A stretch of 64,000 nucleotides of DNA from a bacterium (GCA_965219955.1 OZ244799.1:1536001-1600000); one strand, 5' to 3'. Counted from the first letter of the stretch, positions 3,688-28,037 are shown. Notes: a model not told the origin generated them from the letters alone. Numbers and translations: made by a program.

Positions 3688-3719
3688 TGTTCTCGCCCTT
3701 CTCTTTTATGCCCTCAAGA

Positions 3720-4508
3720 CTACAAAGGACCCGAGATGCCGCCGTCTTTTCGGATTCTCCAGAAATGCACCATCATCAGAATCGCCGCTATCAGAGGAAC
3801 GACGATGCAATGCAGCACGTAGAAGCGCAACAGCGTGGGCGGACCCACGATGGTTCCGCCCAGAAGTGCGGAGCGCGCGTCGAAGCGCGGCGTCACGCCC
3901 ACCATTTCGGCGAACGGGCCCTCGGACCCCAGCAGAGGCGTGGCCCGCGCCATGTTGGTTCCCACCGTCACCGCCCAGATGGCAAGCTGATCCCAGGGGA
4001 GCAGATAGCCGGTAAAGCTGAGCAGGAGGGTGAGCGTGAGCAGCAGCACCCCGATGACCCAGTTGAACTCGCGCGGCGGCTTGTAGGAGCCCGTCATGAA
4101 GACGCGCAGCATGTGCAGCCACACGGCGATGACCATCGCGTGCGCCGCCCAGCGGTGCATGTTTCGCATGAACATGCCGAAGGGGGCGTCGAATTCGAGA
4201 TACTTGATGTCGGCGTAGGCGTATTCGCCCACGGGCCGGTAGTAGAACATCAGGACTACGCCGGTGACGACGAGGTAGAGGAACAGCAGGAACGTCACCC
4301 CGCCCATGCACCACGTGAAACGGATGCGGATGGCGTGGCGCCTGATTTTCGTGGGATGCAGGTGCAGCCAGAGGTTGTCCACGACCATGAGAACGCGGTT
4401 TCTCGGCGTATCCTCATACCCGTGACGGAACATCGACCTCCACACCTGGGAGTCGAGCACACTGCGTTTCACCTGGTCCAGGTTCAAGCGTTCTTTCAAA
4501 CTCGGCAT
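3720..4508 (-). CDS. petB: Cytochrome b6-type N-terminal subunit of a Rieske/cyt b complex
   Basis: [14 protein letters not shown] and RFYVLH..VHF heme-b His pairs, '[11 protein letters not shown]', 'WCMGG' Cys, C-terminal 'GISGPL'. Confidence 0.9.
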
Positions 4509-4551
4509 CTAAAAACCCCCACGTCCTCGCATCGAACGAACATATAAGCTC

Positions 4552-5106
4552 TTACGTAAAGAGAAAAGCGCCCGGGTCGTCCCATTGCCCTTTCTCGTGG
4601 AGAAACAGCTTGCCCTTGTCGATAATCAGCTGCCCATCCTCGGCCAGGCCGATTTTCAGCCTCTCGAGCGGCCTGGGCGCCGGACCCTCGAAGTTGATGC
4701 CGGAGCGGCGGAATCCGCTCCCGTGGCACGGGCACTTGAACTTGTCCTCGGAGCCCAGGTACTTCGGCGTGCATCCCAAGTGGGTGCATATCGCGCTCAG
4801 GGCGTAGAAGCCGTTCTCCTCGCGGATGATCCACACGCGCTCGCTGTTCACGTAGCGGGTGTCCACCACGCCCACGGCGTAGTCCGCCGGGTCGCCCGCC
4901 TTGAACTCGGTGGGCGGTTCGAACAGAACGCGCGGGAACATGAAGCGCAGGAAACCGATCAGCGCGACGTTGATGGCGCCCAGGATGCCGAGCCACCCCG
5001 TGTAGTTCATGAACCGCCTGCGGTCGATGAACGGCTTTTTCTCTTTCGCCTCCTCCTCGTAATCGGCAGGCAGCTTCACCGGAGGAGCTTTCAAGCGAGT
5101 GTTCAT
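4552..5106 (-). CDS. petC: Rieske 2Fe-2S subunit of a Rieske/cyt b complex
   Basis: Tat-like 'DRRRFM' plus TM helix, CTHLGC and CPCHGS motifs, 'GPAPRPL'; start placed at ATG 5106 (AGGA upstream). Confidence 0.92.
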   Translation of the reverse strand: MNTRLKAPPVKLPADYEEEAKEKKPFIDRRRFMNYTGWLGILGAINVALIGFLRFMFPRVLFEPPTEFKAGDPADYAVGVVDTRYVNSERVWIIREENGFYALSAICTHLGCTPKYLGSEDKFKCPCHGSGFRRSGINFEGPAPRPLERLKIGLAEDGQLIIDKGKLFLHEKGQWDDPGAFLFT

Positions 5107-5399
5107 GAGGATCCTACACTCCTGTTCTGAGACTCGAACCAACTTTCGACTTCACTCATCCCGCGCCTGTCAGATGCCAAGCGTCGCACGGATGCATTAT
5201 CCCCCATCACGACGGATAATGAAACCGATGCGCTTGGTTTCGCCACGGGCGGCGCATGGCCTCGCCGGACGCCGAGACCATAGGGATTTAAGCTGTTGCC
5301 AAGGTTCTTATTACGGACGAAAGCACCTCGTGTCAAGGGCGGATGCGCGTTTCTCGCCGGATAGCGGGAGATTCAAGGCGAGGGGCTCGCACCGGGACG

Positions 5400-13051: not shown

Positions 13052-13621
13052 GACTTCATCCTCCTATGCGGTGTCCAAAGGGGATGATCGTTCGACGGGC
13101 GTTCTTTCTTGCGACTCGTTCATGGCCTCGTGCAGCGGGCGAAAACCGAACTCAAAATACAACCTTTCCTCTATTTTGAATAAACGCTCACAGCCCATTC
13201 TGTCAACCCTTTTTTTCGGATGGCTGGCAGGTCCTCCGCCCGAGCGCGCTTCACCCATGGCCGCCACTCCGGCGCATGACGGAATAACGGCAAGCCGGAC
13301 ATCCATTTGCAGGGTCCGCTCACGAACGCGGGCCTTTTCAGAACGACCCCGGCAGGATTATGGCAAATGCAAAATCCCCCGGCTCTCAAAGGGGGATGAC
13401 TGCAAACCGCGCAAGGCCGAATTTCAATACTCTTGCAACATTCAGGCGCAGTCCTTATATTGGAATTAGGAACACGCTCATAAAGAGCATGCCGACATGG
13501 AAAGGACGCTTCCTTTCCGCGCCGGCGCCCCGCTGATGAGGAGGATGAAAACGACTCGGAACAGTTAATGACAGGGTTGCCGTGAGCCAATACAAGATTT
13601 CGTGGGGGAGTTACCGCAATC

Positions 13622-14362
13622 ATGAGTACATTTATCCTGCCTTTCGTTTTGTCCCTGCTTTTTCTCCTCCTCCCGGACGCTTCCCTGGCGAAGTACAAGG
13701 TCGCGCCCGTCAAAGGCGGCGGCGTCATCACCGGCAAAGTGCGCTTCGAGGGAAAGGTTCCCGCCCCCGTCAAATACATCATCACCAAGGACCAGCACGC
13801 CTGCGGCAAGGGCCAGGTCACCCGCCAGGAGGTGGACGTGAAAGACGGCGCCCTCAGGGGCGTGGTCGTCTATCTCGACAAGGTCAAGAAGGGCAAGGCG
13901 TATCCCAAGGAAATCCAGAGCGCCGTGGTGGACCAGAAGAAGTGCGCCTACGTCCCCTACCTCCAGGTCGTCGCCGAGGGGGGCAAGGTCACCATCCTGA
14001 ACAGCGACGACGCCCACCATAACATCCACACCTACGAGATCATCGGCCGGGCGAAGCGCTCCATGTGGAACATCTCCCAGCCCAAGCAGCGCAAGAAGGT
14101 CGTCCGCCGGGCGAAGGTCCGGCGCAGCCCCATCGTCCGGGTCGAGTGCGACGTGCACAACTGGATGAAGGGCTTTCTCTTCGTGGCCCGGAACCCCTAC
14201 TACGCGCTCGTGGGCGCGGACGGGAGCTTCGAGATCACCGGCGTCCCGCCGGGGAAATACTCGCTGCGGGCGTGGCACCCGGCCCTGGGGGTCAAGAAGA
14301 AGAAGATCGCCGTATCCGCCGGGGGAAAGAAGGCCGCTGCCTTCACGTTTACTTCGAAATAA
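13622..14362 (+). CDS. Secreted carboxypeptidase-regulatory-like/cupredoxin-like protein
   Basis: Signal peptide; 'VDQKKCAYVP', 'NSDDAHHNIH', 'CDVHNWM' (C-x2-H-x2-M), 'GSFEITGVPPGKYSLRAWH'. Confidence 0.75.
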   Translation: MSTFILPFVLSLLFLLLPDASLAKYKVAPVKGGGVITGKVRFEGKVPAPVKYIITKDQHACGKGQVTRQEVDVKDGALRGVVVYLDKVKKGKAYPKEIQSAVVDQKKCAYVPYLQVVAEGGKVTILNSDDAHHNIHTYEIIGRAKRSMWNISQPKQRKKVVRRAKVRRSPIVRVECDVHNWMKGFLFVARNPYYALVGADGSFEITGVPPGKYSLRAWHPALGVKKKKIAVSAGGKKAAAFTFTSK

Positions 14363-14395
14363 GACCGGATTTCCGGCCCAGGGGGGCGCAAGGAA

Positions 14396-14914
14396 ATGGG
14401 CATGAGACCGCATACGGAGAAACCACCAAAGAGGCGAGCCGTTCGCTATGCGGCCGTTGGTTTTTCCGTCCTGCTGCTCACGGCGGGGCCCGCGGGCACG
14501 GCCGGCGCTCAAGCCTACAAAAATTCCATGCCGGGGCATTCCGGGGGAGCCGGTATGCGCCACGGACACAAGGGAGACGTGGTTCCCTGCACCCACACCA
14601 TGCCGGCAAAACACGTGAAACCGCCCCCGGGCGCGAGCACCGGGAAGATCGTCATCCAGTCGCCCGCCAACGGTGGCGTCGTCCGCTCCCGCACAGTGAA
14701 GGTCATCTTCGATGTCCGGAACAAGGGGGTCCTGGACGACCACATCCATATCTACCTGGACGGCCGCTGTCAGAACATGATCAGACAGGGGGGGTCCTAT
14801 CACATCAGTGGCCTCAGAGACGGAAAACACACCATCGAATTGCGGCTCGTCACCAGGGAACACGTCGAATACGGGCCAAAGGCCAGGGTTGATATTGTCG
14901 TTCGGCACAAATGA
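14396..14914 (+). CDS. Secreted His/Met-rich Ig-like protein, possibly metal-binding
   Basis: Signal peptide ending AQA; 'MPGH..MRHGH', 'IQSPANG', 'DHIHIYLDG', 'GKHTIEL'. Start may be 14402. Confidence 0.65.
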   Translation: MGMRPHTEKPPKRRAVRYAAVGFSVLLLTAGPAGTAGAQAYKNSMPGHSGGAGMRHGHKGDVVPCTHTMPAKHVKPPPGASTGKIVIQSPANGGVVRSRTVKVIFDVRNKGVLDDHIHIYLDGRCQNMIRQGGSYHISGLRDGKHTIELRLVTREHVEYGPKARVDIVVRHK

Positions 14915-14967
14915 GACGTATGTCCGACAGGGGATAGCGTCATAAGATAGAACAGCCAGCCAGGGAG

Positions 14968-16083
14968 GTGCGAAGAATGGACTTGTTTCGCGTTGTTCGG
15001 CGCCGGCTACTCTGCGGAATCCTGCTGAGCGCCTGGGTTCTGCTCCCCGCCGCGGGTTGGGGGGCTGCTCTCGCGCCCCTGCCGGCCCCCAAGGCCCAGA
15101 AGCCCGCGCAGGTCGAACTGGGCCGGTACCTGTTCTTCGACCCCCGGATGTCGGGGGACGGAGGGATCAGCTGCGCCACCTGCCACCAGCCCGCGAAGGG
15201 ATGGGGCGACGGGCAGGCGCTCTCGACGGGCTATCCGGGCAGCAAGTATTTCAGGAACGCCCAGACGCTCCTGAACGCCGCCTACAACAAGCGCGTCTTC
15301 TGGGACGGCCGCCTGAGCGGGGCCGACCTGCCCACGCTCGTGCGGGATCACCTGACGGAAGCCCACTTCATGCTGGTGGACGGGCGGCTGTTCCCCGAGC
15401 GCCTCAAGCAGGTGCCCCTGTACGTGAAGAAATTCAAGGAGGTCTACGGCGGGGAGCCTTCCTTCGGCGGCGCGCTCAAGGCCATCGCGGCGTTCCTGCA
15501 CACCATCGCTTCGGAGAACGCACCTTTCGATGCGTACTTGAAAGGCGACAAGAAAGCCCTTTCCGCCGAGGCGCAAAAGGGCTTCGCCCTGTTCAGCGGA
15601 AAGGCCGGTTGCGTTCAGTGCCATAACGGCGCCCTTTTGAGCGACGGCGGGTTCCACGCGCTCGGCGTTCCCGAGAACGAGCAGATATTCAAGGACCCGC
15701 TGCGCCACATCACCTTCCGCCGGTTCAACAAGGTCATCGGCGTCCCGAACTTCATGAACTTAAGAGCCGACCCGGGCCTCTACGTCGTGACCAAACAGGA
15801 GAGCGACCGGGGCAAGTTCCGCACGCCGACGCTGCGCGAAGTCGCGAAGACGGCGCCCTACATGCACAACGGCGCACTCGCCACGCTCGAAGAGGTCGTC
15901 GCCTTTTACGACAAGGGCGGCGGGAGCGGCCCGAACAAAAGCTCGCGGCTCAAGCCGCTGGGGCTTAGTGCGAATGAGAAGAAGGCACTGGTGGAGTTCC
16001 TGAAGAGCCTCTCGGGCCCGGCGGTCTCCGCGGCGGCGCCGAAAATTCCCGATTACGAACTTCGCAAACTCGGCGATAATTGA
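14968..16083 (+). CDS. idrP2: Di-heme cytochrome c peroxidase (CCP/MauG family), IdrP-type
   Basis: 'LGRYLFFDPRMSG..SCATCH', 'CVQCHNG', 'FRTPTLR..TAPYMHNG'; P1/P2 numbering is by synteny only and uncertain. Confidence 0.85.
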   Translation: MRRMDLFRVVRRRLLCGILLSAWVLLPAAGWGAALAPLPAPKAQKPAQVELGRYLFFDPRMSGDGGISCATCHQPAKGWGDGQALSTGYPGSKYFRNAQTLLNAAYNKRVFWDGRLSGADLPTLVRDHLTEAHFMLVDGRLFPERLKQVPLYVKKFKEVYGGEPSFGGALKAIAAFLHTIASENAPFDAYLKGDKKALSAEAQKGFALFSGKAGCVQCHNGALLSDGGFHALGVPENEQIFKDPLRHITFRRFNKVIGVPNFMNLRADPGLYVVTKQESDRGKFRTPTLREVAKTAPYMHNGALATLEEVVAFYDKGGGSGPNKSSRLKPLGLSANEKKALVEFLKSLSGPAVSAAAPKIPDYELRKLGDN

Positions 16084-16093
16084 GGAGACGGCC

Positions 16094-17233
16094 ATGAACG
16101 CGCGAATCAAAAACTGCTTCCTGGGTTCCACGATGGCCGCCTGCTTCATCGCCCTCCTCGTGACGGGAGGAGCAAGCGCGGCCCAGGAGGGGAAATTCCC
16201 CCCGCTGGGACCCTTGCCGCCGGTTCCGGTGCCTGCGGACAACCCCATGTCCGACGCCAAGGTGGAACTCGGCAAGCTGCTCTTCTTCGACGCCCGCCTC
16301 TCGGGCGACGCCAGCACGTCGTGCGCCTCCTGCCACAGCCCCGAGGCCGGCTGGGGAGACGGCGGGGACCTGAGCCGGGGCTACCCGGGCACGCAGCACT
16401 GGCGGAACTCCCAGACGATCCTGAACTCGGCCTATTACGCAAAACTGTTCTGGGCGGGCGAGTCGACGAGTCTCGAAGACCAGGCGAAGAGCGCCGCCAC
16501 GGGCAACGTGGCGGGAAACGGCGACACCATGATGATGGAGGAGCGCCTGCGCCAGATTCCCGAATACGTGAAACGCTTCCGCGAAGTGTTCGGGACCCCC
16601 TGGCCGACCATCGACGACGCCTGGCGGGCCATCTCGGCCTTCGAACGCACGGTGGTGTCCAACGCGAAGGACGTGCCGTTCGACCGCTACATGAAGGGCG
16701 ACAAGAAGGCGCTCCCGGACAGCGCGAAACGCGGGCTGGCTCTCTTCCAGGGAAAGGCGGGGTGCGTCCAGTGCCACAACGGCGCGCTCCTCTCGGATGA
16801 GGACTACCACAACGTCGGCGTCCCGAAGAACCCAGCGTTCGAGGAGGACCCTCTAAGGCAGATAACGCTTCGCTTTCAGCACGTCATCCGCGGCGTCCCC
16901 GAATCCGTCTACCGCAAGGCGGACCGGGACCTGGGGCTCTTCTACACCACCAAGCGCGAAGCCGATAAGGGGAGGTTCCGCACCCCGAGCCTGAGAGAGC
17001 TCAAATACACGGCGCCCTATATGCACAACGGCGCGTTTTTCGAGTTGGATGAGGTCATCGATTTTTACGACGAAGGGGGAGGCGAGGACGCGAACAAGAG
17101 TCCCCTCATCAAGAAACTGGGGCTTTCGGACGAGGAGAAAGAAGACCTGCTGGCCTTCCTGGAATCGCTCTCGAGCGATAAGCCCTTGCTCGTCCGGCCC
17201 CCCGAACTGCCGCCGTACGCGGCCATGCCGTAA
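16094..17233 (+). CDS. idrP1: Di-heme cytochrome c peroxidase (CCP/MauG family), IdrP-type
   Basis: 'LGKLLFFDARLSG..SCASCH', 'CVQCHNG', 'FRTPSLR..TAPYMHNG'; paralog of the upstream gene, adjacent to the Rieske subunit. Confidence 0.85.
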   Translation: MNARIKNCFLGSTMAACFIALLVTGGASAAQEGKFPPLGPLPPVPVPADNPMSDAKVELGKLLFFDARLSGDASTSCASCHSPEAGWGDGGDLSRGYPGTQHWRNSQTILNSAYYAKLFWAGESTSLEDQAKSAATGNVAGNGDTMMMEERLRQIPEYVKRFREVFGTPWPTIDDAWRAISAFERTVVSNAKDVPFDRYMKGDKKALPDSAKRGLALFQGKAGCVQCHNGALLSDEDYHNVGVPKNPAFEEDPLRQITLRFQHVIRGVPESVYRKADRDLGLFYTTKREADKGRFRTPSLRELKYTAPYMHNGAFFELDEVIDFYDEGGGEDANKSPLIKKLGLSDEEKEDLLAFLESLSSDKPLLVRPPELPPYAAMP

Positions 17234-17243
17234 GGAGGAATCC

Positions 17244-17786
17244 ATGACTCAGGAAGCCAAGGAAACCCGGCCTTGCGTCTCGCGGCGCGCCTTTCTCCTG
17301 GCCGGAGGAACCGCCATGAGCATCGTGCTGGTCCAGGGCATCCCCGGCCTGGCGGGCGCGGCCCTGCAGCGGGCGGAGTATCCCCGCCAAAAAATCGGCA
17401 GGCTCAGCGCCCTCAAGGTCGATGCGCCGCAATACTTCCAGTACCCGTGGAAGGACGTCTTCTCGGGCTGCATGCTGGTCAGGCTGGGCGACCGCGCAGG
17501 CGGCGGCGTCGGCCCCAGGCGGGACGTCGTGGCGTTCAGCACCCTCTGCACACACATGGGCGGCCCCCTCCAGGGCACCTATAACGCGCAGCACAAGGCC
17601 ATCGGCCCGTGTCCCTTTCATCTGACGACCTTCGACCTGATGAAGCACGGCATGGTCGGGGCGGGGCAGGCGACGGAGAGCCTCCCCCAGGTCGTTCTGG
17701 AGACCCGGGGAGACGACATCTACGCGATCGGCATGATGGGGCTGCTGTATGGTTATCACTCGAACCTGGCGCCGGTTCAGCGCTGA
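17244..17786 (+). CDS. idrB: AioB-like Rieske small subunit of putative iodate reductase
   Basis: ATG 17244 after AAGGAGG; Tat motif 'SRRAFLL'; 'GGVGP..DVVAFS.LCTHMG', 'CPFH', 'GQATESLPQ', 'GLLYG'. Confidence 0.88.
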   Translation: MTQEAKETRPCVSRRAFLLAGGTAMSIVLVQGIPGLAGAALQRAEYPRQKIGRLSALKVDAPQYFQYPWKDVFSGCMLVRLGDRAGGGVGPRRDVVAFSTLCTHMGGPLQGTYNAQHKAIGPCPFHLTTFDLMKHGMVGAGQATESLPQVVLETRGDDIYAIGMMGLLYGYHSNLAPVQR

Positions 17787-17798
17787 GGAGGAGGCATC

Positions 17799-20465
17799 AT
17801 GGCAGGAAAGGTGACGAGCTACTATCTTGCGGAAGACAGTGTCCCCCTCCCCCCGCCGGACGCGGAGGTGTTCACCACGGCGTGCGACTACTGCATCGTG
17901 GGCTGCGGGTACAAGGTCTACCGCTGGCCGATCGGCCGCGAGGGCGGGCCCAAGGCGAGCCAGAACGCCCTGCGCGTCGATTTCCCCACCGCCATCATGA
18001 GCGGCGGCTGGGTCAGCCCGAACATGCACAACATCATCATGGTGAACGGCAGTCCCCACCACGTCGTCGTCATGCCGGACAAGGACGCGAAGGTCGTGAA
18101 CGTCGGGGGAAACCACTCCATCCGGGGCGGCGTGCTGGCCAAGAAGCTATACAACCCCAACGAACCCTCGCAGGACCGCCTGCGCCAGCCGATGATGCGC
18201 GTCCGCGGCACTCTCCAGGAGGTCTCGTGGGACACGGCCATGGGCGTCATGGCGGGACTCTCGAAACACGTCCTCGACAAGTACGGCGAACACGCCTGGG
18301 CGATGAAGACGTATTCCTACCAGTATTTCGAGAACACCTACGCCATCTCCAAGCTCGCCTTCCGCGCTATCGGGACGCCGGCCTACTCCCCGCACGACAA
18401 GCCGGGCCCCGGCCCGGACACGCCGGGGATCGATTTTTCCGGCATCAACCCCTTCAGCGCCTCCTATGACGACTGGGGAGAGGCCGAGGTCATCTTCTTC
18501 TCCGGCGTCGACCCGTGGGAAACCAAGTCGGTGCTGTTCACCTCGTGGATCATGGGCGGGAAAACGCCGAGCAAGAAGCTCGTCTTCGCCCTGCCGCGCA
18601 AGACCTCGGGCGTGGCCTACGGCGAGAAGCGCGGCGGTCTGTTCCTCCCCGTCATTCCGGGGACGGACACGGTGCTCCACCTGGCCATCATCCGCCTGAT
18701 CCTGGAGAACGGCTGGGAGGACAAGGAGTTCATTGCGCGCAAGGTGTCGAACAAGTGGGAGATCGGCTCCGGCATGGGGCGCGGCACCCGCAACACGCCG
18801 TGGCAGTGGGTCACGACCTGGGGCAAGTACGGGACGGACTTCGAGGGCTACAGGAAGTGGATACTGAGCTATCCCTACGCCGAACTGGAACGGGCCGCCA
18901 AGATTACGGGCGTGCCCGCGGCGTCCATCCGCCAGACGGCTGAAATCCTCGCCAAGCCCAAGCCCGACGGAACGCGCAAGAAGACCTCGTTCATGCTCGA
19001 GAAGGGAAATTACTGGTGCAACAGCTTCGGGAACACGGCTTCGTTCGCGGCGCTGGGGCTGGTCTGCGGCGCCGGGTCGCGGCCGGGCCGGGTGATCTCG
19101 CGCGGCGGAGGGCACCAGCGCGGCTGGATGGGCGCGGCCGGCTACCCGAGGGTCATGTCGCCCGAGAAGGCGCCCGGACGCCGCAAGAAGGAGATCGATC
19201 TCGACCGCTGGGTCGTGGACGGTAACGTGCGCTTCGCGTGGGTCATCGGCACCACCTGGTGCCAGGCCATGGCGGCGTCCCAGGAGTTGATGGACGTCTT
19301 CCAGCGGCTGACGCGCCGCAACCCCCACCAGATCGAGAGCTTCGACGTCGATAAGGCGGTGGATGTGCTGAAGCGGCGGGCGGATTCCGGCGGCATGGTC
19401 GTCGCCCACCAGGACATCTACCCCGTCTCCCCGATCGGAACCGAGTATGCGGACCTGGTGCTCCCGGCCGCCACCTGGGGCGAGGAGGACTTCACCCGGT
19501 GCAACGGCGAGCGCCGCTTGAGGCTCTACAGCAAGTTCGCCGATCCTCCCGGAGAGGCCCGGCCCGACTGGTGGATCATCGCGGCCTTCGCGAGGAAGAT
19601 GGGCTTCAAGGGCTTCGACTGGAAGGACAGCAACCAGATTTTCGAGGAGGCGGCCCGCTTCGGAAGAAAAGGCGTGCTCAACTACCACCCGCTCGTGGTG
19701 AAGGCCAAACGCGAGGGGAAACGGGGCCACGAGCTGCTCCGCGAATACGGAACCGGCGGCATCCAGACCCCCATCCGCATGGTCAAGGGCGAACTCGTCG
19801 GCACGAAGCGGCTCCACGACGAGACCCTGGAGCTCGGAACCCCCGAAGGCCCCACCATGCACCGGAAATGGCTCACCTCCTTCGGGACCCAGAGCGGCAA
19901 GGCGGTTTTGCTCAAAAGCTACTGGGAGGATTTCAAGGACTTCTACGACCGGGTTACCCCGCAGGGGGATGAGCTGTGGGTGACGAACGGGCGGATCAAC
20001 GAGCTCTGGCAATCCGGCTACGACGACAAGCGCCGGCCCTACATCATGCAGCGCTGGCCCCAGCAGTTCCTGGAAATCCACCCCAAAGACGCCGGCGCCC
20101 GGGGCATCGAATCGGGAGACCTGGTGGCCATCGAGAACGACGACCTGCTCGTGCAGACGGGCGGATACATCGGCGTCGACGGCAAGGAGCAGACGTTCAC
20201 CGAACTCATGAAGGCGGGGAATATCAAGAAGAGCAAGGGGAGCTTCACCGCGGTGGCCATGGTCACGGACGCGGTCCGGGAGGGCGTCACCTTCGCCTAT
20301 TTCGGATTCCCCGAGAACCCGGCCAATTCGGTGGTCCACCGGGTGCCGGACCCCCTGACCAACCGCTACCGCTACAAGCTGGGCAAGGGGAAGTTGAAGA
20401 AGATAGGAGAATCTCCGCACAAGCATTCGCTGACGAGCTTAAGCTTCGTCCCCCGGACGCTTTGA
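17799..20465 (+). CDS. idrA: AioA-like DMSO-reductase-family molybdoenzyme, putative dissimilatory iodate reductase large subunit
   Basis: N-terminus 'DSVPLPPPDAEVFTTACDYCIVGCGYKVYRWP' ([3Fe-4S] C-x2-C-x3-C), 'SIRGG', 'RGGGHQRG', 'NGERRLRLY', 'NGRINELWQS'; preceded by a Rieske gene and two CCP genes. Confidence 0.85.
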   Translation: MAGKVTSYYLAEDSVPLPPPDAEVFTTACDYCIVGCGYKVYRWPIGREGGPKASQNALRVDFPTAIMSGGWVSPNMHNIIMVNGSPHHVVVMPDKDAKVVNVGGNHSIRGGVLAKKLYNPNEPSQDRLRQPMMRVRGTLQEVSWDTAMGVMAGLSKHVLDKYGEHAWAMKTYSYQYFENTYAISKLAFRAIGTPAYSPHDKPGPGPDTPGIDFSGINPFSASYDDWGEAEVIFFSGVDPWETKSVLFTSWIMGGKTPSKKLVFALPRKTSGVAYGEKRGGLFLPVIPGTDTVLHLAIIRLILENGWEDKEFIARKVSNKWEIGSGMGRGTRNTPWQWVTTWGKYGTDFEGYRKWILSYPYAELERAAKITGVPAASIRQTAEILAKPKPDGTRKKTSFMLEKGNYWCNSFGNTASFAALGLVCGAGSRPGRVISRGGGHQRGWMGAAGYPRVMSPEKAPGRRKKEIDLDRWVVDGNVRFAWVIGTTWCQAMAASQELMDVFQRLTRRNPHQIESFDVDKAVDVLKRRADSGGMVVAHQDIYPVSPIGTEYADLVLPAATWGEEDFTRCNGERRLRLYSKFADPPGEARPDWWIIAAFARKMGFKGFDWKDSNQIFEEAARFGRKGVLNYHPLVVKAKREGKRGHELLREYGTGGIQTPIRMVKGELVGTKRLHDETLELGTPEGPTMHRKWLTSFGTQSGKAVLLKSYWEDFKDFYDRVTPQGDELWVTNGRINELWQSGYDDKRRPYIMQRWPQQFLEIHPKDAGARGIESGDLVAIENDDLLVQTGGYIGVDGKEQTFTELMKAGNIKKSKGSFTAVAMVTDAVREGVTFAYFGFPENPANSVVHRVPDPLTNRYRYKLGKGKLKKIGESPHKHSLTSLSFVPRTL

Positions 20466-20512
20466 TGGAGATGGAGGTTTACACAGGCCCGTAGAACCAC
20501 GAGGGAGGTTGT

Positions 20513-20899
20513 ATGCGAATGTCTCGATCGAGAAGGTTTTTCATCTGCGCAGTCCCTGCGCTCGCAGTGGCGCTCTTTTTCTGGGCATCTGATGACGGGG
20601 CCGCTCAGCAGAAAGGCGACGTCGCGGCCGGCAACGTCAAATACCAGCAGCTTTGCGCCTCCTGCCACGGCGCATCGGGCAAGGGCGACGGCCCCGCGGC
20701 CAAGGCGCTCAACCCGAAGCCGAGGAATCACACGGACGCCAAGTACATGAAGACCATAACGGACGAATATATCGCCAAGATCACCAAGCTTGGCGGCGTC
20801 GCGGTCGGGAAATCGCCGTTGATGCCCCCCTGGGGCGGTGTCCTTTCGGACGCGGACCTCCAGAACCTGGTCGCGTTCATGCGCTCGCTGGCGAAATAG
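20513..20899 (+). CDS. Periplasmic monoheme cytochrome c
   Basis: Signal peptide, 'CASCHG..GKGDGP', distal Met in 'MPPWG'. Confidence 0.92.
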   Translation: MRMSRSRRFFICAVPALAVALFFWASDDGAAQQKGDVAAGNVKYQQLCASCHGASGKGDGPAAKALNPKPRNHTDAKYMKTITDEYIAKITKLGGVAVGKSPLMPPWGGVLSDADLQNLVAFMRSLAK

Positions 20900-20909
20900 G
20901 CTCACGAAA

Positions 20910-22955
20910 ATGAGTTCAGGGAATCGCGACCCCTCCCCTCCCGAGCGCTCCTTCCGGGTCGAGTTGCCCGGCCACGACCACTGGCGGAAAACGATTTGCT
21001 GCCAGGATGCGTGTCCCGTCCACACGGACGCGCGGGGTTACGTGACGGCCATCTCGGAGCATGACTTCGAGCGCGCCTACATCATCGCCCGGGGGCCCAA
21101 CCCCTTCGCGTCGGTCTGCGGGCGCGTCTGCGCGGCCCCGTGCGAAGCGGCCTGCCGCCGCGGCAACATCGACGCGCCGGTGGCCATCCGGGCGCTCAAG
21201 CGATTCGTGACGGAGCGCTACGGGGTGGAGGCCGACCTGGCGTCCGGCAAGGGAGAATCCTCCTTCTCGCACCGGAGCCTCAGGAGCATGCGGGACCTCC
21301 GCTTTCAGCCCTCCACTCGAACGATCAACGATTTCTCGGTGCTGGAAGCGGCCCGCCGAAAGCCCGAACAGGAAAAGACGGCAGGGAAAAAGGTGGCCGT
21401 CGTCGGCTCGGGCGTGGCGGGGCTGACCTGCGCCCACGACCTCGCCCTGCTCGGCTATGACGTGAGCGTTTTCGAGAAACAGGGGGTACCCGGCGGCATG
21501 CTGATGCTCGGGGTTCCCGAATACCGCCTCCCGCGCGACCTCGTTCAGGCCGAAATCCAGGCCATTCTCAGCCTGGGCGTGGAGCTTCGGCTGAACCAGG
21601 CCATCGGGCGGGACTTCGACCTTTCCTCTCTTCGCGAGGAAGGCTTCGAGGCGGTGTTCGTCGCCATCGGCGCGCACGTGAGCCGCTCTCTCCCCATGGA
21701 AGGGCAGGACGCGGACGGCGTTTTCCGGGCCGTCGAGTTTCTGCTGAACGTGAACCTGAACTTCCGCGTCGATCTGGGCGAGCGCGTCGTCGTGATCGGC
21801 GGGGGGAACGTGGCCATGGACGCCGCCCGGGTCGCCGCCCGGGTCACCGGCGGGGCGGATGCCCCCGCGGGCGCTGCCGATCAGACCGAAGACGCCGTTC
21901 TCATGCGCGAGATGATGGACGTCGCCCGCGAGGCGATGCGCGTGGGAGCGAGGAACGTCCACGTCATCTGCCTGGAATCGCGCGACGAGATGCCGGCGGC
22001 GGATTTCGAGATTGAAGAGGCGCTCGATGAGGGGATAGAGCTGGAACCCCGTGTGGGGCCCGTCCGCATCGTGGAGGAAGAGGGCCGCGTGGTCGGGCTG
22101 GAAGTCCAGACGTGCACCCGCGTCTTCGACGAGGAGGGCCGCTTCAGCCCGGAATTCGACTCGGACACCAGGCGCGTGATCCCGTGTGATTCGGTGATCG
22201 TCGCCGTCGGCCAGGCCTCCGACCTCTCCTGGATCAAGGATGGGGACGGCGTGGAGACGACGCCGCGCGGGACGATCCGCGTGGATACCGAAACCCTGGC
22301 CACGACCGCTCCGGGCGTGTACGCGGGCGGGGACGTCGCCATGGGTCCCCGGATATTCATCGAGGGCGTGGAGAACGGCCACCGGGCCGCCCGCTCCATT
22401 CACACCTATCTCTCGGGCGGTCAGGCGGGCGTCCAGACGCATCTTCAGTGGGCCTCCATCGAACCCTTGCAACAGGCGCTGCTCCGGGAGCCGGGGGACG
22501 GGTTTTCCCTTCCCGTCGTCAATCCCGGATACCAGAAGGCGTCCCGGCGAAACCCCGACGCGCTGCCCATCGAGCGCAGAATCGGCGTCGCCGAGGTGGA
22601 GCTTGGTTATTCGCCCGGAGAAGCGGTCGGGCAGGGGCTCCGGTGTCTGCGCTGCAGTGCGAATCCGATCTTCGACGGCGCGAAGTGCATCCTCTGCGGC
22701 GGCTGTGTGGACGTGTGCCCGTCGCGCTGTCTTCGGATGGTTCCCCTCGAATCCCTTCAGGGCGGAGAGGACCTGGCGGCTCTGGTCCAGGCCCGCTTCG
22801 GAACGTCCGCCGGGGGCGCAGGAGAGAGGGGCGCGGCCATGATCATGGACCCGGACAAGTGCATCCGTTGTTCGCTCTGCGCCCAGCGCTGTCCCACGGG
22901 CGCCGTCACCATCGAGAATTTTTCTTTCCAGGAAGAGTGGGTGGAGACTGGATGA
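20910..22955 (+). CDS. Cytoplasmic Fe-S flavoprotein, NAD(P)-dependent oxidoreductase (GltD/NfnB/SudA-like) with C-terminal ferredoxin domain
   Basis: 'CQDACP', 'CGRVCAAPCEAACRR', FAD 'GSGVAG', NAD(P) 'GGGNVAMD', C-terminal 'CLRC', 'CILCGGCVDVCP', 'CIRCSLCAQRCP'; no signal peptide. Confidence 0.9.
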   Translation: MSSGNRDPSPPERSFRVELPGHDHWRKTICCQDACPVHTDARGYVTAISEHDFERAYIIARGPNPFASVCGRVCAAPCEAACRRGNIDAPVAIRALKRFVTERYGVEADLASGKGESSFSHRSLRSMRDLRFQPSTRTINDFSVLEAARRKPEQEKTAGKKVAVVGSGVAGLTCAHDLALLGYDVSVFEKQGVPGGMLMLGVPEYRLPRDLVQAEIQAILSLGVELRLNQAIGRDFDLSSLREEGFEAVFVAIGAHVSRSLPMEGQDADGVFRAVEFLLNVNLNFRVDLGERVVVIGGGNVAMDAARVAARVTGGADAPAGAADQTEDAVLMREMMDVAREAMRVGARNVHVICLESRDEMPAADFEIEEALDEGIELEPRVGPVRIVEEEGRVVGLEVQTCTRVFDEEGRFSPEFDSDTRRVIPCDSVIVAVGQASDLSWIKDGDGVETTPRGTIRVDTETLATTAPGVYAGGDVAMGPRIFIEGVENGHRAARSIHTYLSGGQAGVQTHLQWASIEPLQQALLREPGDGFSLPVVNPGYQKASRRNPDALPIERRIGVAEVELGYSPGEAVGQGLRCLRCSANPIFDGAKCILCGGCVDVCPSRCLRMVPLESLQGGEDLAALVQARFGTSAGGAGERGAAMIMDPDKCIRCSLCAQRCPTGAVTIENFSFQEEWVETG

Positions 22956-22956
22956 C

Positions 22957-23448
22957 ATGACTGCGAGCATGGATGAACAGACCCCCCGGCGACGGATGCT
23001 CCTGGGTCTCGGCTGGGTTTCCTTCCTGATCTCCCTGCTGGGTCCGGTTCTCGCCAACGTCCGGTTCCTGTTCCCCAACGTCGTTTATGAGGGCGAGTCG
23101 GTTCTGAAACTCGACTCTCTGAAAAAATACCCCGTGGGGTCCATCACGTTTTTCGCCGACAAGAAAATCGTTCTGTTTCGCGAGAAGGACGGCTTCAGGG
23201 CCTGCACCGCCGTCTGTCCTCATCTTCGGTGCGTGATCAGCCCCTTCGTCGGGGCGCCCGGCGCGTCTCCCGATATATTGAGGGCCCGGTGTCCGTGCCA
23301 CGGCAGCACGTTCGACGGGCGGGGCCAGGTGCTCGGGGGGCCTGCGCCGCGCGGGCTCGACTTCTTTCTCGTCAAGAAATCGCCGGATGGCCGCGTCGTG
23401 GTCGATACGCGCAAAGTCGTCGCCCCCTCCGAGCATTTCAAGATCTGA
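22957..23448 (+). CDS. Rieske 2Fe-2S subunit of a second Rieske/cyt b complex
   Basis: 'PRRRML' plus TM helix; 'CPHLRC', 'CPCHGS', 'GPAPRGL'. Confidence 0.9.
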   Translation: MTASMDEQTPRRRMLLGLGWVSFLISLLGPVLANVRFLFPNVVYEGESVLKLDSLKKYPVGSITFFADKKIVLFREKDGFRACTAVCPHLRCVISPFVGAPGASPDILRARCPCHGSTFDGRGQVLGGPAPRGLDFFLVKKSPDGRVVVDTRKVVAPSEHFKI

Positions 23449-23457
23449 GCCGCCACG

Positions 23458-24954
23458 ATGGTCACCGAATCCCCACGGAAACCAGGACGCGGAAAAGCCG
23501 CATCGTGGATCAGGGACAACCGCGTCGTCCGCTCGATCTTCCGCCGCGGCTATCCGGACAACGATCTGGATCGCGCGGCCGTCATGTTCTCGAATTTCTT
23601 CCTGCACGTCCTTCCCGCGCGAACGCACGTCCACAGCTTAAAGCCCACCTACACCTGGGGGCTCGGGATCATCTCCCTGTTCCTGTTCATCATTCTTCTG
23701 GGCACCGGTTCCTTGCTCATGTTCTTCTACGTCCCCTCCACCGGACGCGCCTACAGCGACATGAAGGACCTGCAGTTCGTCGTCTCCTACGGCGTCGTCC
23801 TGCGGAACCTCCACCGCTGGGCCGCCCACGCGATGGTCGCCGTCGTCTTCCTGCACATGTGCCGGGTGTTCTATACGGCGAGCTATAAAGCGCCCCGCGA
23901 GTTCAACTGGGTCATCGGGGTGCTCCTCTGGGGGGCGACCCTGATGATGAGCTTCACGGGCTACCTGCTCCCCTGGGATCAGCTCGCCTACTGGGCCATC
24001 ACCGTCGGGTCGAGCATCGCCAGCTATCCGCCGCTGGTAGGAGAATACATCCGCACGCTCATGCTCGGAGGCGATACGGTGGGGCAGAACGCGCTGATCC
24101 GCTTCTACGTCATGCACGTCATCGTCCTGCCGGGGATCATGATGATACTCATGGGCGTCCATTTCTGGCGGATACGCAAGGACGGGGGCCTCTCCCGGCC
24201 GCCCGCGCCGCCCTCAGACGCCGCCCGGGGCGAGGCGGCGGCCTTTTCGCCGCACAAGACGTACATGCTCGTGGAGCTGGCCGAGGGCAAAACGCCCATG
24301 GTGGAGGCGCAGGCCCCCGAAGAAGAGGTCATGAGCTGGCCGCACACGGTCTTCAGGATGCTGGTCGTCTTCGTGGGCGTCGTGGCCGTCCTCTCCGCCG
24401 TCGCCTACTTCTTCGATGCGCCTCTGGAGGAGCTGGCCAACCCGGACCATCCGCCCAACCCCGCCAAGGCGCCCTGGTACTTTCTCGGACTCCAGGAAAT
24501 CGTGAGCTATTCCGCCCTGGCGGGAGGCGTCATCGTTCCCGCCGCCGCGATTATCGGCCTCATGACCATTCCCTACGTCGACCGGGACCCCGAGGGCCAG
24601 GGAACCTGGTTCACCTCGGGCCAGGGCCGGCGGATCACGCTCTGGTCGATCGTGGCCGTCATCCCGGTCGTCCTCGTCCTGACCTGGCTGAACGAGCACT
24701 ACGCGGTTCGGATACTGGTTCCGGGCGCCCCGCAGATCTGGGTCGACCTCCTGAACCCGGGCACCATACTGATCTTCCTCTTCGCCATCGGGTCGCTCTA
24801 CATCTGGCGGCGGACGGGGTCGAGCCGGATGGGGGCGCTGGCTCTCTATTCATATTTTCTGACGTCTTATCTGATTTACACGCTCATCGGGCTGTATTTC
24901 CGCGGCGCCAACTGGGCCTGGATATGGCCGTGGCAGGCGACGGGCCTGCACTGA
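23458..24954 (+). CDS. Cytochrome b (N-terminal and subunit-IV parts fused) of the second complex
   Basis: '[15 protein letters not shown]', '[11 protein letters not shown]', 'RFYVMH..VHF', '[15 protein letters not shown]'. Confidence 0.92.
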
Positions 24955-24966
24955 GGCGGATGACGA

Positions 24967-25770
24967 ATGGCGAATTCAAATCACAACGATTCTCGGGTGC
25001 CGTTCGGGTGGGTGGTCGCCTTCGCCGCCCTGAGCGTATGCGCGGCGTTGTTTTTCCTGCTCTCCGTCTGGAAGGACTACGACCGCGAATGGCGGGACTA
25101 TCAGCGGACGTTCCGTGAGATGCTCGTCGAAAGAACCGGAACCGAAGAGGAGCGCGAGGCGGCTCTGGCGAGCGGGGATCAGTTCGAGCAGATCATCGTG
25201 GCCGGCGGCGAGCGCGTGGACAGGTGCGTCATGTGCCACCGCGGCGTCGAGCACCCGGCGTTCAAGGACGCCGACCAGCCTTTCGCCAGGCACCCCACCA
25301 TCCCGCCGCACCCATTCGAGCAATTCGGCTGCACCGTGTGCCACCAGGGCCAGGGGCGGGCCACGAGCGTCCAGGACGCCCACGGCGAAGTCGCGTTCTG
25401 GGAGGAGCCGCTCCTGCGGGGAGGGTTCATTCAGGCGAGTTGCGGCCCTTGCCACGCGGGCGCTCTCAAGGACGCCCCCCTCATCCAGAGGGGCAAGCTG
25501 CTCTATCTGATGAACGGCTGCCTCGCCTGCCACAAGATCAGGGGCGCCGGCGGGGTCGTCGGGCCCGACCTGACGTTTGCGGGCGAGCGCAAGAAGGACC
25601 CGAAGTGGCACATCGAGCACTTCAAGTTCCCGCAGAAGGTTTCGCCCGGCTCCGCCATGCCCGCCTACGGCCATTTGAAGCCGGAAGACCTCGAAGCGCT
25701 CACGGTCTACATGCTGAGCCTCCGCAGGGCGCCTTCCGCCCTGGCGCTGGCCGCGCCCAGAAAAAAATAG
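24967..25770 (+). CDS. Membrane-anchored tetraheme cytochrome c
   Basis: N-terminal TM helix; four CxxCH motifs (CVMCH, CTVCH, CGPCH, CLACH); C-terminal 'GPDLT..PGSAMP'. Confidence 0.9.
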   Translation: MANSNHNDSRVPFGWVVAFAALSVCAALFFLLSVWKDYDREWRDYQRTFREMLVERTGTEEEREAALASGDQFEQIIVAGGERVDRCVMCHRGVEHPAFKDADQPFARHPTIPPHPFEQFGCTVCHQGQGRATSVQDAHGEVAFWEEPLLRGGFIQASCGPCHAGALKDAPLIQRGKLLYLMNGCLACHKIRGAGGVVGPDLTFAGERKKDPKWHIEHFKFPQKVSPGSAMPAYGHLKPEDLEALTVYMLSLRRAPSALALAAPRKK

Positions 25771-26032
25771 AACGCGCATCGCCCTCCCCTCTCATCCGCC
25801 GGTGAAATATCCGGGCCAGGAGATCATTCGGCTTTTGCCTTCACGCCCGCGCAGGAGGCAACCGACAGATTGACCGGAGCCGATGCGGGCGCCGGCGCCG
25901 CAGAACGACCACTGAAAACGACAGGCCGAAGAGTCGAAAACGAAGCCGCTCGATTCGGGCACGCGCCGGAATGACAGGAAAGGCGCAAATCACTGCCTCT
26001 CTCCGATCGTGATCGACCCCCGGTGAACGGTT

Positions 26033-26061
26033 TTGAAGAAACGGGAGAACTCTTTTATAGT
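26033..26061 (+). promoter_or_regulatory. Sigma70-like promoter within a ~40-bp segment repeated at ~27250
   Basis: TTGAAG-17 bp-TATAGT; cggtgaacggttttgaagaaacggg recurs as cggtgaacggatttgaagaaacgga at ~27250-27274. Confidence 0.5.
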
Positions 26062-26133
26062 AGCGAGAATCAAGAGCGTCCAGTCGATTCAATCGAAAAA
26101 ATCTCCGGTTGGGCAACCAAAAAGGATTGCGAG

Positions 26134-26973
26134 ATGACAACCAAATTGACCGAAGAGGAACTTCGAATTCTAAGCGAGGCCTTAACATCAGAATCCGAGG
26201 GCCGGAAAATTGGCGAGGTGTTCGTCACATTCTTTGAAAGTCCTGGTTTTCAGCGTAAAAATCTAAAGGCCGAAGGACCTGAATATAGTTACATTAGCTA
26301 CCTTCTAGCATTAAAAGGCGAAAAATTTCCCAAGAGTTCTGCTCTTGCCCGTAACTCAGCAACCCAAATAAGAAGTTTCATCAAGAGACATGACGAGTTT
26401 TCCGATGACCTGAAAGAAAAACTGGCGGTTCATGCAGGCGAGTGTGATGAAATTTCCAATGACGAAGGCCAACAACGAAAAGAAATGAGCGAAGCTGCGA
26501 AGATAATCCAGAGAGAAAAGCATCAAAATGGAATCTACGCTTATACGTACCCACATTATCTCAATCATTACTTCATATCTGCCAAAGACGGTCTTACCGA
26601 TGATCGAACATTCATCAAAATCGGTCGAACATCAAATGCTTTAAGCAGCCGATTGGCGAGCGAAAAAACCCAGATGCCTCAGGATCCGATCCTGTTGTTT
26701 TTCTTCAAGGCCGGCGAGCGCGAACGCGCAGAGGAACCGGAACTAAAGAATACGCAGAATAATATACTTAAAGAAACGGAAACGACCATCCATGACCACT
26801 TGAAATCCATCGGCCATGTAAAATCCAGTTCCGGGGGAGGCGGTACAGAATGGTTCCTGACCAATTCCGCCACCATCGAGTCGACGGCTAAATTGATGAA
26901 GTTGGATATCGTATATGACCATAAAATAGAAGAAGCGAAGCGCGCAGAAGAGGAAGAGAAATCAGGCAACTGA
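26134..26973 (+). CDS. GIY-YIG (T5orf172-like) domain protein
   Basis: 'GIYAYTYPHY', 'IKIGRT', 'E..IH..L', 'GGTEWF'; low GC; start chosen at ATG 26134. Confidence 0.7.
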   Translation: MTTKLTEEELRILSEALTSESEGRKIGEVFVTFFESPGFQRKNLKAEGPEYSYISYLLALKGEKFPKSSALARNSATQIRSFIKRHDEFSDDLKEKLAVHAGECDEISNDEGQQRKEMSEAAKIIQREKHQNGIYAYTYPHYLNHYFISAKDGLTDDRTFIKIGRTSNALSSRLASEKTQMPQDPILLFFFKAGERERAEEPELKNTQNNILKETETTIHDHLKSIGHVKSSSGGGGTEWFLTNSATIESTAKLMKLDIVYDHKIEEAKRAEEEEKSGN

Positions 26974-27350
26974 GATTAAACATTCACCCGTATCATCTCG
27001 CACGGGCGTCCCATTCACTGAACATCCCCCAATCATGCGAATGCTCCCTCCCCTCTGGCAGTGACACTCCCAAACCGTCTTCCGGCATGCGCCGGAATGA
27101 CGAGCCAAAACGCAATGCGGGTGGACACGCGGTTCCGCCCCTACGAAATTCTGCGAACCAAACGAATCCGTAGGGACAGGTCGCGACCTGTCCCTGCAAA
27201 AGGCGCAACTCCTCGTCCGCATACCCCTTCTCCGGTCAAGTTTGCCTCCCGGTGAACGGATTTGAAGAAACGGAAGAGCTTTTTGGTAGGGGAATAATTG
27301 GGGAATTATAAACTTAACTATGCAAACTTTTTGAAATCTTTCTCCATTTT

Positions 27351-27740
27351 TCAAGATAATGAAACTAAAGCAATAACAACCATAAACGAAAAAACAAGTA
27401 TTATTGTCGTCGCTGAACCAAAACAACCTGTCCCTTTATTTGCCAATCTTTTTTTATTGCACTCACTACAAACCCAAACTGTCTTTTTTCTTTTATAAGT
27501 ACGAGAACTAATTCTTGGATTCATTCCTCCTCGTTTGTTGGGGCTTCCAATACTAACCCCGGATGAACGTCCCGTTTCCACATATTCCGTATATTCGTGC
27601 ATTTCAGGTTTCGGGAAACGATAATGGCAATCAGGACATTCAGCCGTTGCAACCCTGCCCCTTCTTGGTTTTTTCATTTCTTGTGATTCTGCCGGAATTA
27701 TATCACCGCCCGTATCTTCATCAATAAAATCGTCTGTCAT
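27351..27740 (-). CDS. Small zinc-ribbon protein with C-terminal TM helix
   Basis: CPDC…CSEC pairs, hydrophobic C-terminus, AT-rich; start uncertain (27740 or 27761). Confidence 0.55.
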   Translation of the reverse strand: MTDDFIDEDTGGDIIPAESQEMKKPRRGRVATAECPDCHYRFPKPEMHEYTEYVETGRSSGVSIGSPNKRGGMNPRISSRTYKRKKTVWVCSECNKKRLANKGTGCFGSATTIILVFSFMVVIALVSLS

Positions 27741-27929
27741 TTTGTTTTTCCCTTCTTCCATTTTCCGCCAATATTTCTACAATCCATAAATGAATTACAT
27801 ATAGGCTAATCGCAATGAGACCCATCGCCACTTAATCCACAGCTTCCCACCTACACAAACATTCCATTGTTTTGGTTCTCCCCAAGCGAGCAAATACATC
27901 CCCGACCTCCCGATAAGGTCGGGCCGTTT

Positions 27930-28037
27930 GCCACACGACTCAGGGATCGATGGTGGGTTCGCTCATCTTCCTGCGAGGAAGCGGTGTTGTATACCGCGGG
28001 CGACGCAGCGAGCAGGTCAATCCATAGGTTATGTGGC
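27930..28037 (-). ncRNA. Candidate structured small RNA, copy 1
   Basis: Ends pair over ~21 nt, internal hairpins; TTGACA-17-CAAGAT just upstream on the minus strand (28073-28045). Confidence 0.45.

Follow-up and report, generated by a model that had tools for sequence, protein, structure and literature searches.

An iodate-reductase-type gene cluster joined to a Rieske/cytochrome b module with a putative NAD(P)-linked flavoprotein

Introduction

Does an iodate reductase (Idr) gene cluster that runs straight into the genes of a Rieske/cytochrome b complex form one respiratory unit with it, or do two systems merely lie side by side? The question is raised by eleven genes at positions 13622-25770 of the window, by which we mean the whole stretch of 64,000 nucleotides analysed here (bases 1536001-1600000 of the closed 4.28-Mb genome of a marine bacterium, GCA_965219955.1, OZ244799.1; coordinates are counted within the window). 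A cupredoxin gene and a His-rich open reading frame (ORF) are followed by four idr genes and then by genes for a cytochrome c, a flavoprotein, a Rieske protein, a cytochrome b and a tetrahaem cytochrome c. An earlier note on this DNA had suggested that the locus may encode a whole dedicated electron-transfer chain, from quinol or NAD(P)H to Idr and the peroxidases. The reading favoured here, which we hold to be rather probable, is that the block joins an iodate-reductase cluster to a portable quinol-oxidising module as one inherited, probably co-transcribed accessory unit, which would feed Idr and two peroxidases.

The iodate reductase genes

The eleven ORFs described in the earlier note are all present on the + strand (Table 1) and closely spaced, with intergenic gaps of 33, 53, 10, 10, 12, 47, 10, 1, 9 and 12 nt from the first gene to the last. 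These figures assume that idrB starts at 17244, at the Met before a Tat-like (twin-arginine) SRRAFLL motif, and the flavoprotein gene at 20910, both starts being read from the translation. The third to sixth genes follow the order P2-P1-B-A (two peroxidases, small subunit, catalytic subunit). Among 80 related idr loci, drawn from species genomes, 67 show the same order; of the 13 that do not, eight are truncated at a contig end, four are from Dehalococcoidia, with one peroxidase gene and no B gene found by homology search, and one holds A alone. The Tat-like motif is found on IdrB and none on IdrA, as read from the translations without a signal-peptide predictor. C29, C32 and C36 of IdrA, the 3Fe-4S motif, are invariant in the Idr and AioA groups alike.

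In a tree of 83 proteins, the window IdrA and all P-P-B-A loci were split from four AioA references (Thermus HB8, Ensifer, Burkholderia and Cytobacillus) with 100% support in the approximate likelihood ratio test (SH-aLRT). The tree was obtained by a quick LG+G4 search with SH-aLRT as its only support measure (no bootstrap), and the IdrA of Pseudomonas sp. SCT and Denitromonas IR-12 are not in it. Its Idr side includes Azonexus hydrophilus NCP973, one of five isolated iodate respirers (PMC13455634), and Notoacmeibacter marinus, for which iodate reduction under oxygen limitation is reported (PMC11445184). The window IdrA is 58% identical to that of NCP973 over the full length and about 30% identical to AioA; it scores more than 1300 bits against clade members and 274-280 bits against solved AioA structures. 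A comparison with 61 plasmid records, every one below 60% identity, was bimodal, with 49-59% for three Idr-type proteins and about 29-31% for 37 AioA-type proteins among the matches listed of the other 58. Furthermore, the window protein carries the Idr residue at 59/59 clade-specific columns, among them a 22-residue insertion that AioA lacks. To count as clade-specific, a column had to be conserved in at least 78/79 rows on the Idr side and to differ in each of the four AioA rows; as the window protein is itself among the 79, the test is in part circular.

The idrABP1P2 signature proposed in the earlier note is thus borne out by the gene order and the tree placement, and the grouping with true AioA, which that note had set against it, was not seen. 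On these comparisons the catalytic subunit is a member of the IdrA clade, not of AioA, and iodate is its presumed substrate. Homologues from Rokubacteria, Lindowbacteria, NC10 and Planctomycetes had already been assigned to the IdrA clade by synteny by Reyes-Umana et al. (PMC8692401).

It is very unlikely that the enzyme acts on a different oxyanion, or that it oxidises arsenite with the electrons being pushed back through the module. The catalytic subunit passes the cut-off of the NCBIfam family arsenite_ox_L (449 vs 359 bits), and its 120 best database relatives (62-95% identity; Rokubacteria, NC10, metagenome-assembled genomes (MAGs) labelled Nitrospinota, Lindowbacteria and others) are all named arsenite oxidase in public records. 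Besides, iodate reduction has been shown for proteobacterial isolates and, heterologously, for alphaproteobacterial and SAR324 MAG clusters (PMC13455634), and no member of the non-proteobacterial branch of the tree is among the strains and MAG clusters whose testing is reported in the papers examined. The identity values and the 59 columns given above argue the other way, as do the neighbouring genes: the four AioA reference loci have aioSR/ars genes and lack cytochrome c peroxidase (CCP) genes, whereas the window cluster has two peroxidase genes and neither aioSR nor ars genes. In none of these respects (grouping, regulatory and ars genes, peroxidases) does it resemble an AioAB arsenite oxidase, although the family cut-off is passed. 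The block shows once again that such genes go under the name arsenite oxidase in public records.

The five-gene module

The cytochrome c gene that follows idrA is counted with the module, because stand-alone modules begin with a cytochrome c gene: in L180, L182 and L183, which are such modules, homologues of it (68-74%) stand before the flavoprotein gene. The flavoprotein reached 442 bits with PRK12771, under the cut-off of 516; it has no hydrophobic segment and its Cys clusters are invariant. Its best solved relatives are NfnABC structures (9bov/9bp5), and 9bp5 is given as the structural homologue of the Kuenenia reductase by Hauser et al. For the Rieske protein, the best match among 177,635 distinct PDB sequences was 9rk4, that is Kuste4569 (E 6.5e-16), and the third was 9rk3, Kustd1480. 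These two are the Rieske subunits of two Kuenenia complexes that bear an NAD(P) oxidoreductase (PMC12954380).

The cytochrome b has cytochrome b6 as its best solved relatives and displays at least eight hydrophobic segments, helices of the module proteins being counted by a crude hydropathy scan. Residues H50, H119, H133, H220, H235 and R247 are invariant in 9/9 module homologues and include the four canonical haem-ligand histidines. As a guess, His50 could be the extra haem ligand proposed for Kuenenia. No Cys was found in residues 1-62, before the first hydrophobic helix, a region which we take to be where b6f binds haem cN. A predicted complex of the cytochrome b with flavoprotein residues 540-681 reached a score of 0.06 (mark 0.32), in a run without controls.

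By sequence similarity, the last five genes are a module homologous to the NAD(P)-linked Rieske/cytochrome b complexes of anammox bacteria, in agreement with the likeness that the earlier note had pointed out. The kinship with Kuenenia is direct for the Rieske protein and, for the flavoprotein, goes only via a shared best solved relative, the comparison covering these two subunits. In Kuenenia itself, flavoprotein binding and the reduction of NAD(P)+ by quinol bifurcation rest on AlphaFold3 models and redox potentials (PMC12954380).

Linkage of idr and module

Nucleotide homology to seven of eight other species' full-length loci is limited to 13417-14377 and 14876-25801, with unrelated flanks; one locus on a 5.7-kb contig (L012) was left out of this count. 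The homology stops at 25760-25801, at the 3' end of the tetrahaem cytochrome gene, and the upstream flank is common only to L009 among the eight compared loci. A sigma-70-like site at 13433-13461, a consensus match only, is the sole promoter-like site upstream of the cluster, and a scan of the spacer between idrA and the cytochrome c gene (20466-20512) revealed no terminator-like site. No direct or inverted repeats were found flanking the block and no tRNA gene was found in the window, so that no mobility mechanism can be named.

In 51 species genomes of the phylum, IdrA was found in 17 and the flavoprotein in 20, the latter including all 17 genomes with IdrA; the lack of co-occurrence in related genomes, which the earlier note had set against its reading, was thus not seen. 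The two parts are adjacent in 15/17; they lie on separate contigs in one fragmented genome (G015) and apart in another (G048). The order is idr followed by module in 14 genomes (this is the order in the window's genus and in G007) and the reverse in G036. Within the window's genus, both parts are present in 14 genomes and neither in eight, and one (G022) has a contig-end fragment of the flavoprotein gene. The modules fall into two lineages, with about 58-62% identity between them, which parallel two IdrA sub-lineages. The flavoprotein of G036 (L179, about 1700-2100) shows an aberrant C-terminus, with the last Cys cluster missing in the alignment, which may be due to a frameshift or an assembly error in this MAG.

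Since homology is confined to the block between unrelated flanks, and both parts are jointly present or absent within the genus, the block behaves as one accessory unit. The stretch 13417-25770 is inherited as such, as a lineage-specific fusion.

Sequences from RNA libraries were also compared. Contigs of four metatranscriptome runs, labelled sponge or marine, are 90-99% identical to the block and cover most of it. The passage from idrA through the cytochrome c gene to the flavoprotein gene is bridged by contigs of three runs from two studies (19974-21090, 20328-20734 and 19313-22149), and further contigs bridge flavoprotein and Rieske, Rieske and cytochrome b, and cytochrome b and tetrahaem genes. 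The block is probably transcribed as a whole; for the transcriptional break between 20465 and 20910 that the earlier note had considered, no terminator-like site was seen at 20465-20513, and contigs bridge that junction. Contig depth is one figure per contig, with which the expression of idr and module cannot be ranked.

Table 1 Features of the block, of the window and of related loci (coordinates of L loci are those of the respective locus)
Feature	Coordinates	Strand	Evidence
Conserved leader upstream of block	13417..13621	+	nucleotide homology to other species' loci starts at 13417-13523
Secreted blue-copper (cupredoxin) protein with C-terminal CarboxypepD_reg-like beta-sandwich	13622..14362	+	conserved ligands, model, Foldseek
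His-rich ORF, variable, probably accessory	14396..14914	+	6.9% His; no Pfam/NCBIfam family
Di-haem cytochrome c peroxidase, IdrP2 by position	14968..16083	+	CCP_MauG E 1.1e-42; two CxxCH
Di-haem cytochrome c peroxidase, IdrP1 by position	16094..17233	+	CCP_MauG E 4e-44; two CxxCH
IdrB, Rieske 2Fe-2S small subunit	17244..17786	+	Tat-like SRRAFLL; TIGR02694 (arsenite_ox_S) 121.7 bits (cut-off 95.65); Pfam Rieske
IdrA, molybdopterin/3Fe-4S catalytic subunit	17799..20465	+	Rieske_3, Molybdopterin and Molydop_binding domains
Secreted monohaem class I cytochrome c, first module gene	20513..20899	+	Cytochrome_CBB3 E 4.8e-13; one CxxCH
Cytoplasmic GltD/NfnB-like NAD(P)/FAD flavoprotein, 681 aa	20910..22955	+	Fer4_20 (N-terminal), Pyr_redox_2, Fer4_7 dicluster (C-terminal 2x[4Fe-4S])
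Membrane-anchored Rieske protein	22957..23448	+	Pfam Rieske; one N-terminal hydrophobic helix
Fused cytochrome b6/subunit IV-like protein, 498 aa, extra C-terminal helices	23458..24954	+	Cytochrome_B and Cytochrom_B_C
Membrane-anchored tetrahaem cytochrome c	24967..25770	+	four CxxCH; predicted N-terminal hydrophobic helix; FixO/Cytochrom_C and c7-like matches
Second Rieske/cytochrome b cluster	2908-5142	-	Rieske 4552-5142; b6 3720-4508; subunit IV-like 2908-3687
Cupredoxin-like genes in idr-free loci	L100 270-863; L202 8894-9325; L203 11468-11929; L206 9039-9485		homology to the window cupredoxin
Molybdopterin oxidoreductase (1162-1243 aa) after module	L099 6575-10063; L205 15240-18971; L207 2511-5999; L209 1932-5606		
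Rrf2-family genes heading modules	L099 447-914; L180 7038-7523; L182 10896-11363 (-); L183 6149-6787		

The module beside other enzymes

The flavoprotein family, which counts 3596 representatives at E 1e-30, was found in 33/151 sampled Acidobacteriota genomes (E 1e-90). The order flavoprotein-Rieske-cytochrome b-multihaem c is kept in 13 of the 14 acidobacterial loci fetched, where the flavoprotein identity is 42-49%. A scan of metagenomes by flavoprotein alignment, which used generic patterns, returned mostly distant GltD-like genes (27-39%) without Rieske/cytochrome b neighbours. Five metagenome loci reached at least 41% identity (L096-L100): the flanks of L096 and L099 show the module, and the other three are cut. 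Among the metagenome loci with the module, L099 has a large molybdenum (Mo) enzyme after it, and in another the module comes after a NiFe hydrogenase cluster. An Rrf2-family regulator gene stands at the head of stand-alone modules in 4/4 loci with upstream sequence, and no such gene is found in the window block. A flavoprotein-like match after idrA in L017 (Methylomirabilota, 24%) proved to be a generic Pyr_redox_2 protein without an Fe-S domain and was not taken as a module.

Several observations weigh against a unit that serves Idr. In the acidobacterial loci the next gene downstream encodes NosZ in 5/14 and a large Mo enzyme (1162-1243 aa) in 3/14. Within the phylum, G040 and G050 carry the module and no IdrA match, and in G048 it lies away from idr. 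Of the idr loci, 52 extend for at least 3 kb beyond idrA; only eight of these carry the module, all in the window's lineage, and 44 do not. None of five idr-bearing genomes of other phyla has a flavoprotein homologue at E 1e-40. Moreover, the co-occurrence counts are not independent, because related genomes are kin. There is no regulator gene inside the block, and the closest tested protein compared with the window IdrA is only 58% identical to it. The support for co-transcription is weak, since DNA may be present in RNA libraries and contigs do not amount to transcripts; the contigs were moreover taken without a silent-stretch control. Finally, the second Rieske/cytochrome b cluster of the window, with split genes and a b6 protein 51% identical to the idr-linked cytochrome b, could equally serve Idr. 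No c-type cytochrome or flavoprotein gene stands beside this second cluster, and no second flavoprotein of the type described here was found in the genome.

Thus the module is not specific to idr, as it stands alone behind Rrf2 or before NosZ or a large Mo enzyme elsewhere, and the chain dedicated to iodate of the earlier note does not hold as worded: two of the genomes with an Rrf2-headed module show no IdrA match, and most idr loci lack the module. It is a portable module, which is found alone, or with NosZ, a large Mo enzyme or Idr. The same observations would suit a general alternative complex III for any periplasmic c-type chain, beside which a horizontally acquired idr cluster happened to land. 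Stand-alone modules in G040, G048 and G050 and the pairing with NosZ or other Mo enzymes would fit this view, as would the many idr clusters without it and the need of the genome's haem-copper oxidase for reduced cytochrome c. We nevertheless consider mere neighbourhood unlikely, as the parts stay adjacent in either of two gene orders, the block occurs or is lacking as a whole within the genus, in differing neighbourhoods, and at the junction the Rrf2 gene is missing, the cytochrome c gene following idrA after 47 nt without a terminator-like site. The reading of the block as one accessory unit that joins Idr to a portable module is accordingly kept.

Proposed electron path and its direction

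In the published Idr model, electrons pass from quinol via bc1 and cytochrome c551 to IdrAB (PMC8692401). Here the block that contains idr also encodes a quinol oxidase, and the path is therefore read as leading from quinol through the module to Idr. Quinol would be oxidised at the Rieske/cytochrome b complex of the module. The first electron would pass from the Rieske protein to the tetrahaem cytochrome c, and on to the soluble cytochrome c, the cupredoxin or both; these carriers would reduce periplasmic IdrB, from which IdrA would deliver electrons to iodate, and would likewise supply the two peroxidases, which may remove reactive by-products. The second electron would enter the b haems and from there either return to quinone or, via the Fe-S chain of the flavoprotein, be exchanged with NAD(P)(H). 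We infer each of these transfer steps, as well as the attachment of the flavoprotein to the membrane complex.

The low-potential branch might also run inwards: electrons would pass from NAD(P)H through the Fe-S clusters of the flavoprotein to the b haems, and on to either quinone or the high-potential chain, so that the complex would work as an NAD(P)H dehydrogenase. This possibility, which concerns only the direction of that branch, appears somewhat unlikely. Enzymes of the best-matching GltD/NfnB family work reversibly with NAD(P)H. In addition, a search of the genome (94% complete) gave no match to RuBisCO, and none of NarG/NxrA type that passed the family cut-off, which suggests that the organism is a heterotroph; for such a genome there is no clear need for reverse electron flow. 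On the other hand, two complex I-type loci already oxidise NADH, and the sole published proposal found for such complexes is the reduction of NAD(P)+ (PMC12954380). The direction is not given by the sequence. The genome further contains one haem-copper oxidase and, far away, a Cld-family gene.

Still more speculatively, the block could carry out an energy-conserving bifurcation, in which one electron goes to iodate and the other is driven uphill to NAD(P)+ by way of the b haems and then the Fe-S flavoprotein. We regard this as doubtful. The potential of iodate (+0.72 V, PMC8692401) lies about 0.8 V above that of menaquinol (PMC12954380). If bifurcation took place, high-potential oxyanion respiration would yield reducing power directly, and the same module would do likewise for NosZ, for the large Mo enzyme and for the anammox enzymes. 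The NAD(P)-linked Rieske/cytochrome b complexes would then be a general device of high-potential anaerobic respiration and not an oddity of anammox bacteria.

Cupredoxin gene, His-rich ORF and flanks

For the first gene, Pfam matched the C-terminal CarboxypepD_reg-like sandwich only, with no cupredoxin match. Four residues, H133, C176, H179 and M182 (C-x2-H-x2-M), are invariant in 18/18 aligned homologues, and this His...Cys-x2-His-x2-Met arrangement is that of type 1 copper sites. The AlphaFold2 model (predicted local distance difference test, pLDDT, 92.5) gave plastocyanin, amicyanin and pseudoazurin as top Foldseek matches (TM 0.6-0.7 on target). Judged by ligands and model, the protein is a blue-copper protein despite the silence of Pfam, as the earlier note had suggested in calling it cupredoxin-like.

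A similar gene precedes idrP2 in 25/80 related idr loci, from Planctomycetota, Lindowbacteria, Rokubacteria, Vicinamibacterales and Hydrogenedentota, and in no proteobacterial or Chloroflexota locus among the 80. Cupredoxin-like genes were also observed directly upstream of the flavoprotein gene in four idr-free loci, one from a metagenome and three acidobacterial (28-34% identity); the protein of L100 keeps all four copper ligands. Because of this position in idr-free loci, the cupredoxin may carry electrons for the module and not for Idr.

The His-rich ORF reported in the earlier note does exist, but a conserved part of the cluster it is not: a homologue was found in only one (L015) of the 80 related idr loci, and 14376-14875 lies outside the nucleotide homology to relatives. 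It is probably accessory. The closest relatives have other, repeat-like DNA in its place (L007 6775-7169, L010 6358-7169), translations of which recur in ORFs at 1177-1617 of the window.

Directly after the block, at 26000-28000, the G+C content is 0.456, compared with about 0.65 within the block, and an ORF at 26023-26973 has a T5orf172/MUG113 domain. This low-G+C stretch may have been inserted from a foreign source and mark a variable region. At the window start, another stretch of lower G+C contains an ORF (184-696, + strand) with an Mrr_cat restriction-endonuclease domain.

Comparison with known systems

Both component systems are known, and their pairing is new as far as the literature was searched: no published description of idr joined to a Rieske/cytochrome b/flavoprotein module was found (subscription papers and supplements of idr papers lay outside the search), nor was any mention of idrA together with Nitrospinota. 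In the same literature, Rieske/cytochrome b complexes bearing an NAD(P) oxidoreductase are discussed only for anammox bacteria. The block adds to these complexes a second kind of terminal enzyme besides NosZ; the portability of the module widens the question of what they do and offers simpler partner enzymes for testing it. For the iodine cycle, it represents an idr cluster enlarged by a cupredoxin and by its own quinol oxidase, found in a lineage with relatives in sponge and marine RNA libraries.

The anammox complexes of Kuenenia stuttgartiensis (Kuste4569-4574 and Kustd1480-1485; PMC12954380) have the same subunit set as the module, namely a Rieske protein, a b6-like cytochrome b, an enlarged subunit IV-like part, a membrane-anchored multihaem cytochrome c and a cytoplasmic NAD(P)/FAD/Fe-S protein. 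In the window, b6 and subunit IV are fused, and the cytochrome c is tetrahaem, whereas theirs is hexa- or octahaem. There is no HAO-like partner here, the partner being Idr and not an enzyme of the nitrogen cycle.

Among named families, the cytochrome b scored best with the Geobacter-type ExtP and ExtQ (NF040969 and NF040970; 266 and 67.6 bits). These are, by their NCBIfam names, b-type cytochromes encoded with a specific oxyanion-reducing (selenite/tellurite) system. As both scores are under the cut-offs (290 and 150), the protein is not counted as a member.

Clade II nos gene clusters, reportedly treated by Hein, Witt and Simon in 2017, share with the module the homologous four-gene order flavoprotein, Rieske, cytochrome b and multihaem c, and in both cases a high-potential reductase of the periplasm is encoded together with a quinol-oxidising complex of its own. 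Since the module precedes NosZ or a large Mo enzyme elsewhere, the principle of a reductase with a private flavoprotein-bearing complex is not new. Clade II clusters are drawn with "FeS, S (Rieske), Cyb, Cyc" before nosZ, the first gene being labelled only "FeS" in the published drawings available (PMC11237620). The window block differs in its terminal enzymes, the Mo enzyme IdrAB and two peroxidases, and in that these are encoded upstream of the module.

With the IdrABP1P2 clusters of Pseudomonas sp. SCT, Denitromonas iodatirespirans IR-12, Azoarcus sp. DN11 and NCP973, the window cluster shares the order P2-P1-B-A, a Tat-type IdrB and an IdrA without signal peptide. The NCP973 island likewise has a small cytochrome c gene after idrA; the window protein is only 28% identical to it and belongs to the module, not to idr. 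The sensor kinase, sigma-54 regulator and moaA of that island have no counterpart in the window block. Conversely, the window cluster has an upstream cupredoxin gene, absent from the proteobacterial and Chloroflexota loci among the 80, and its idr genes run directly on into the Rieske/cytochrome b/flavoprotein module.

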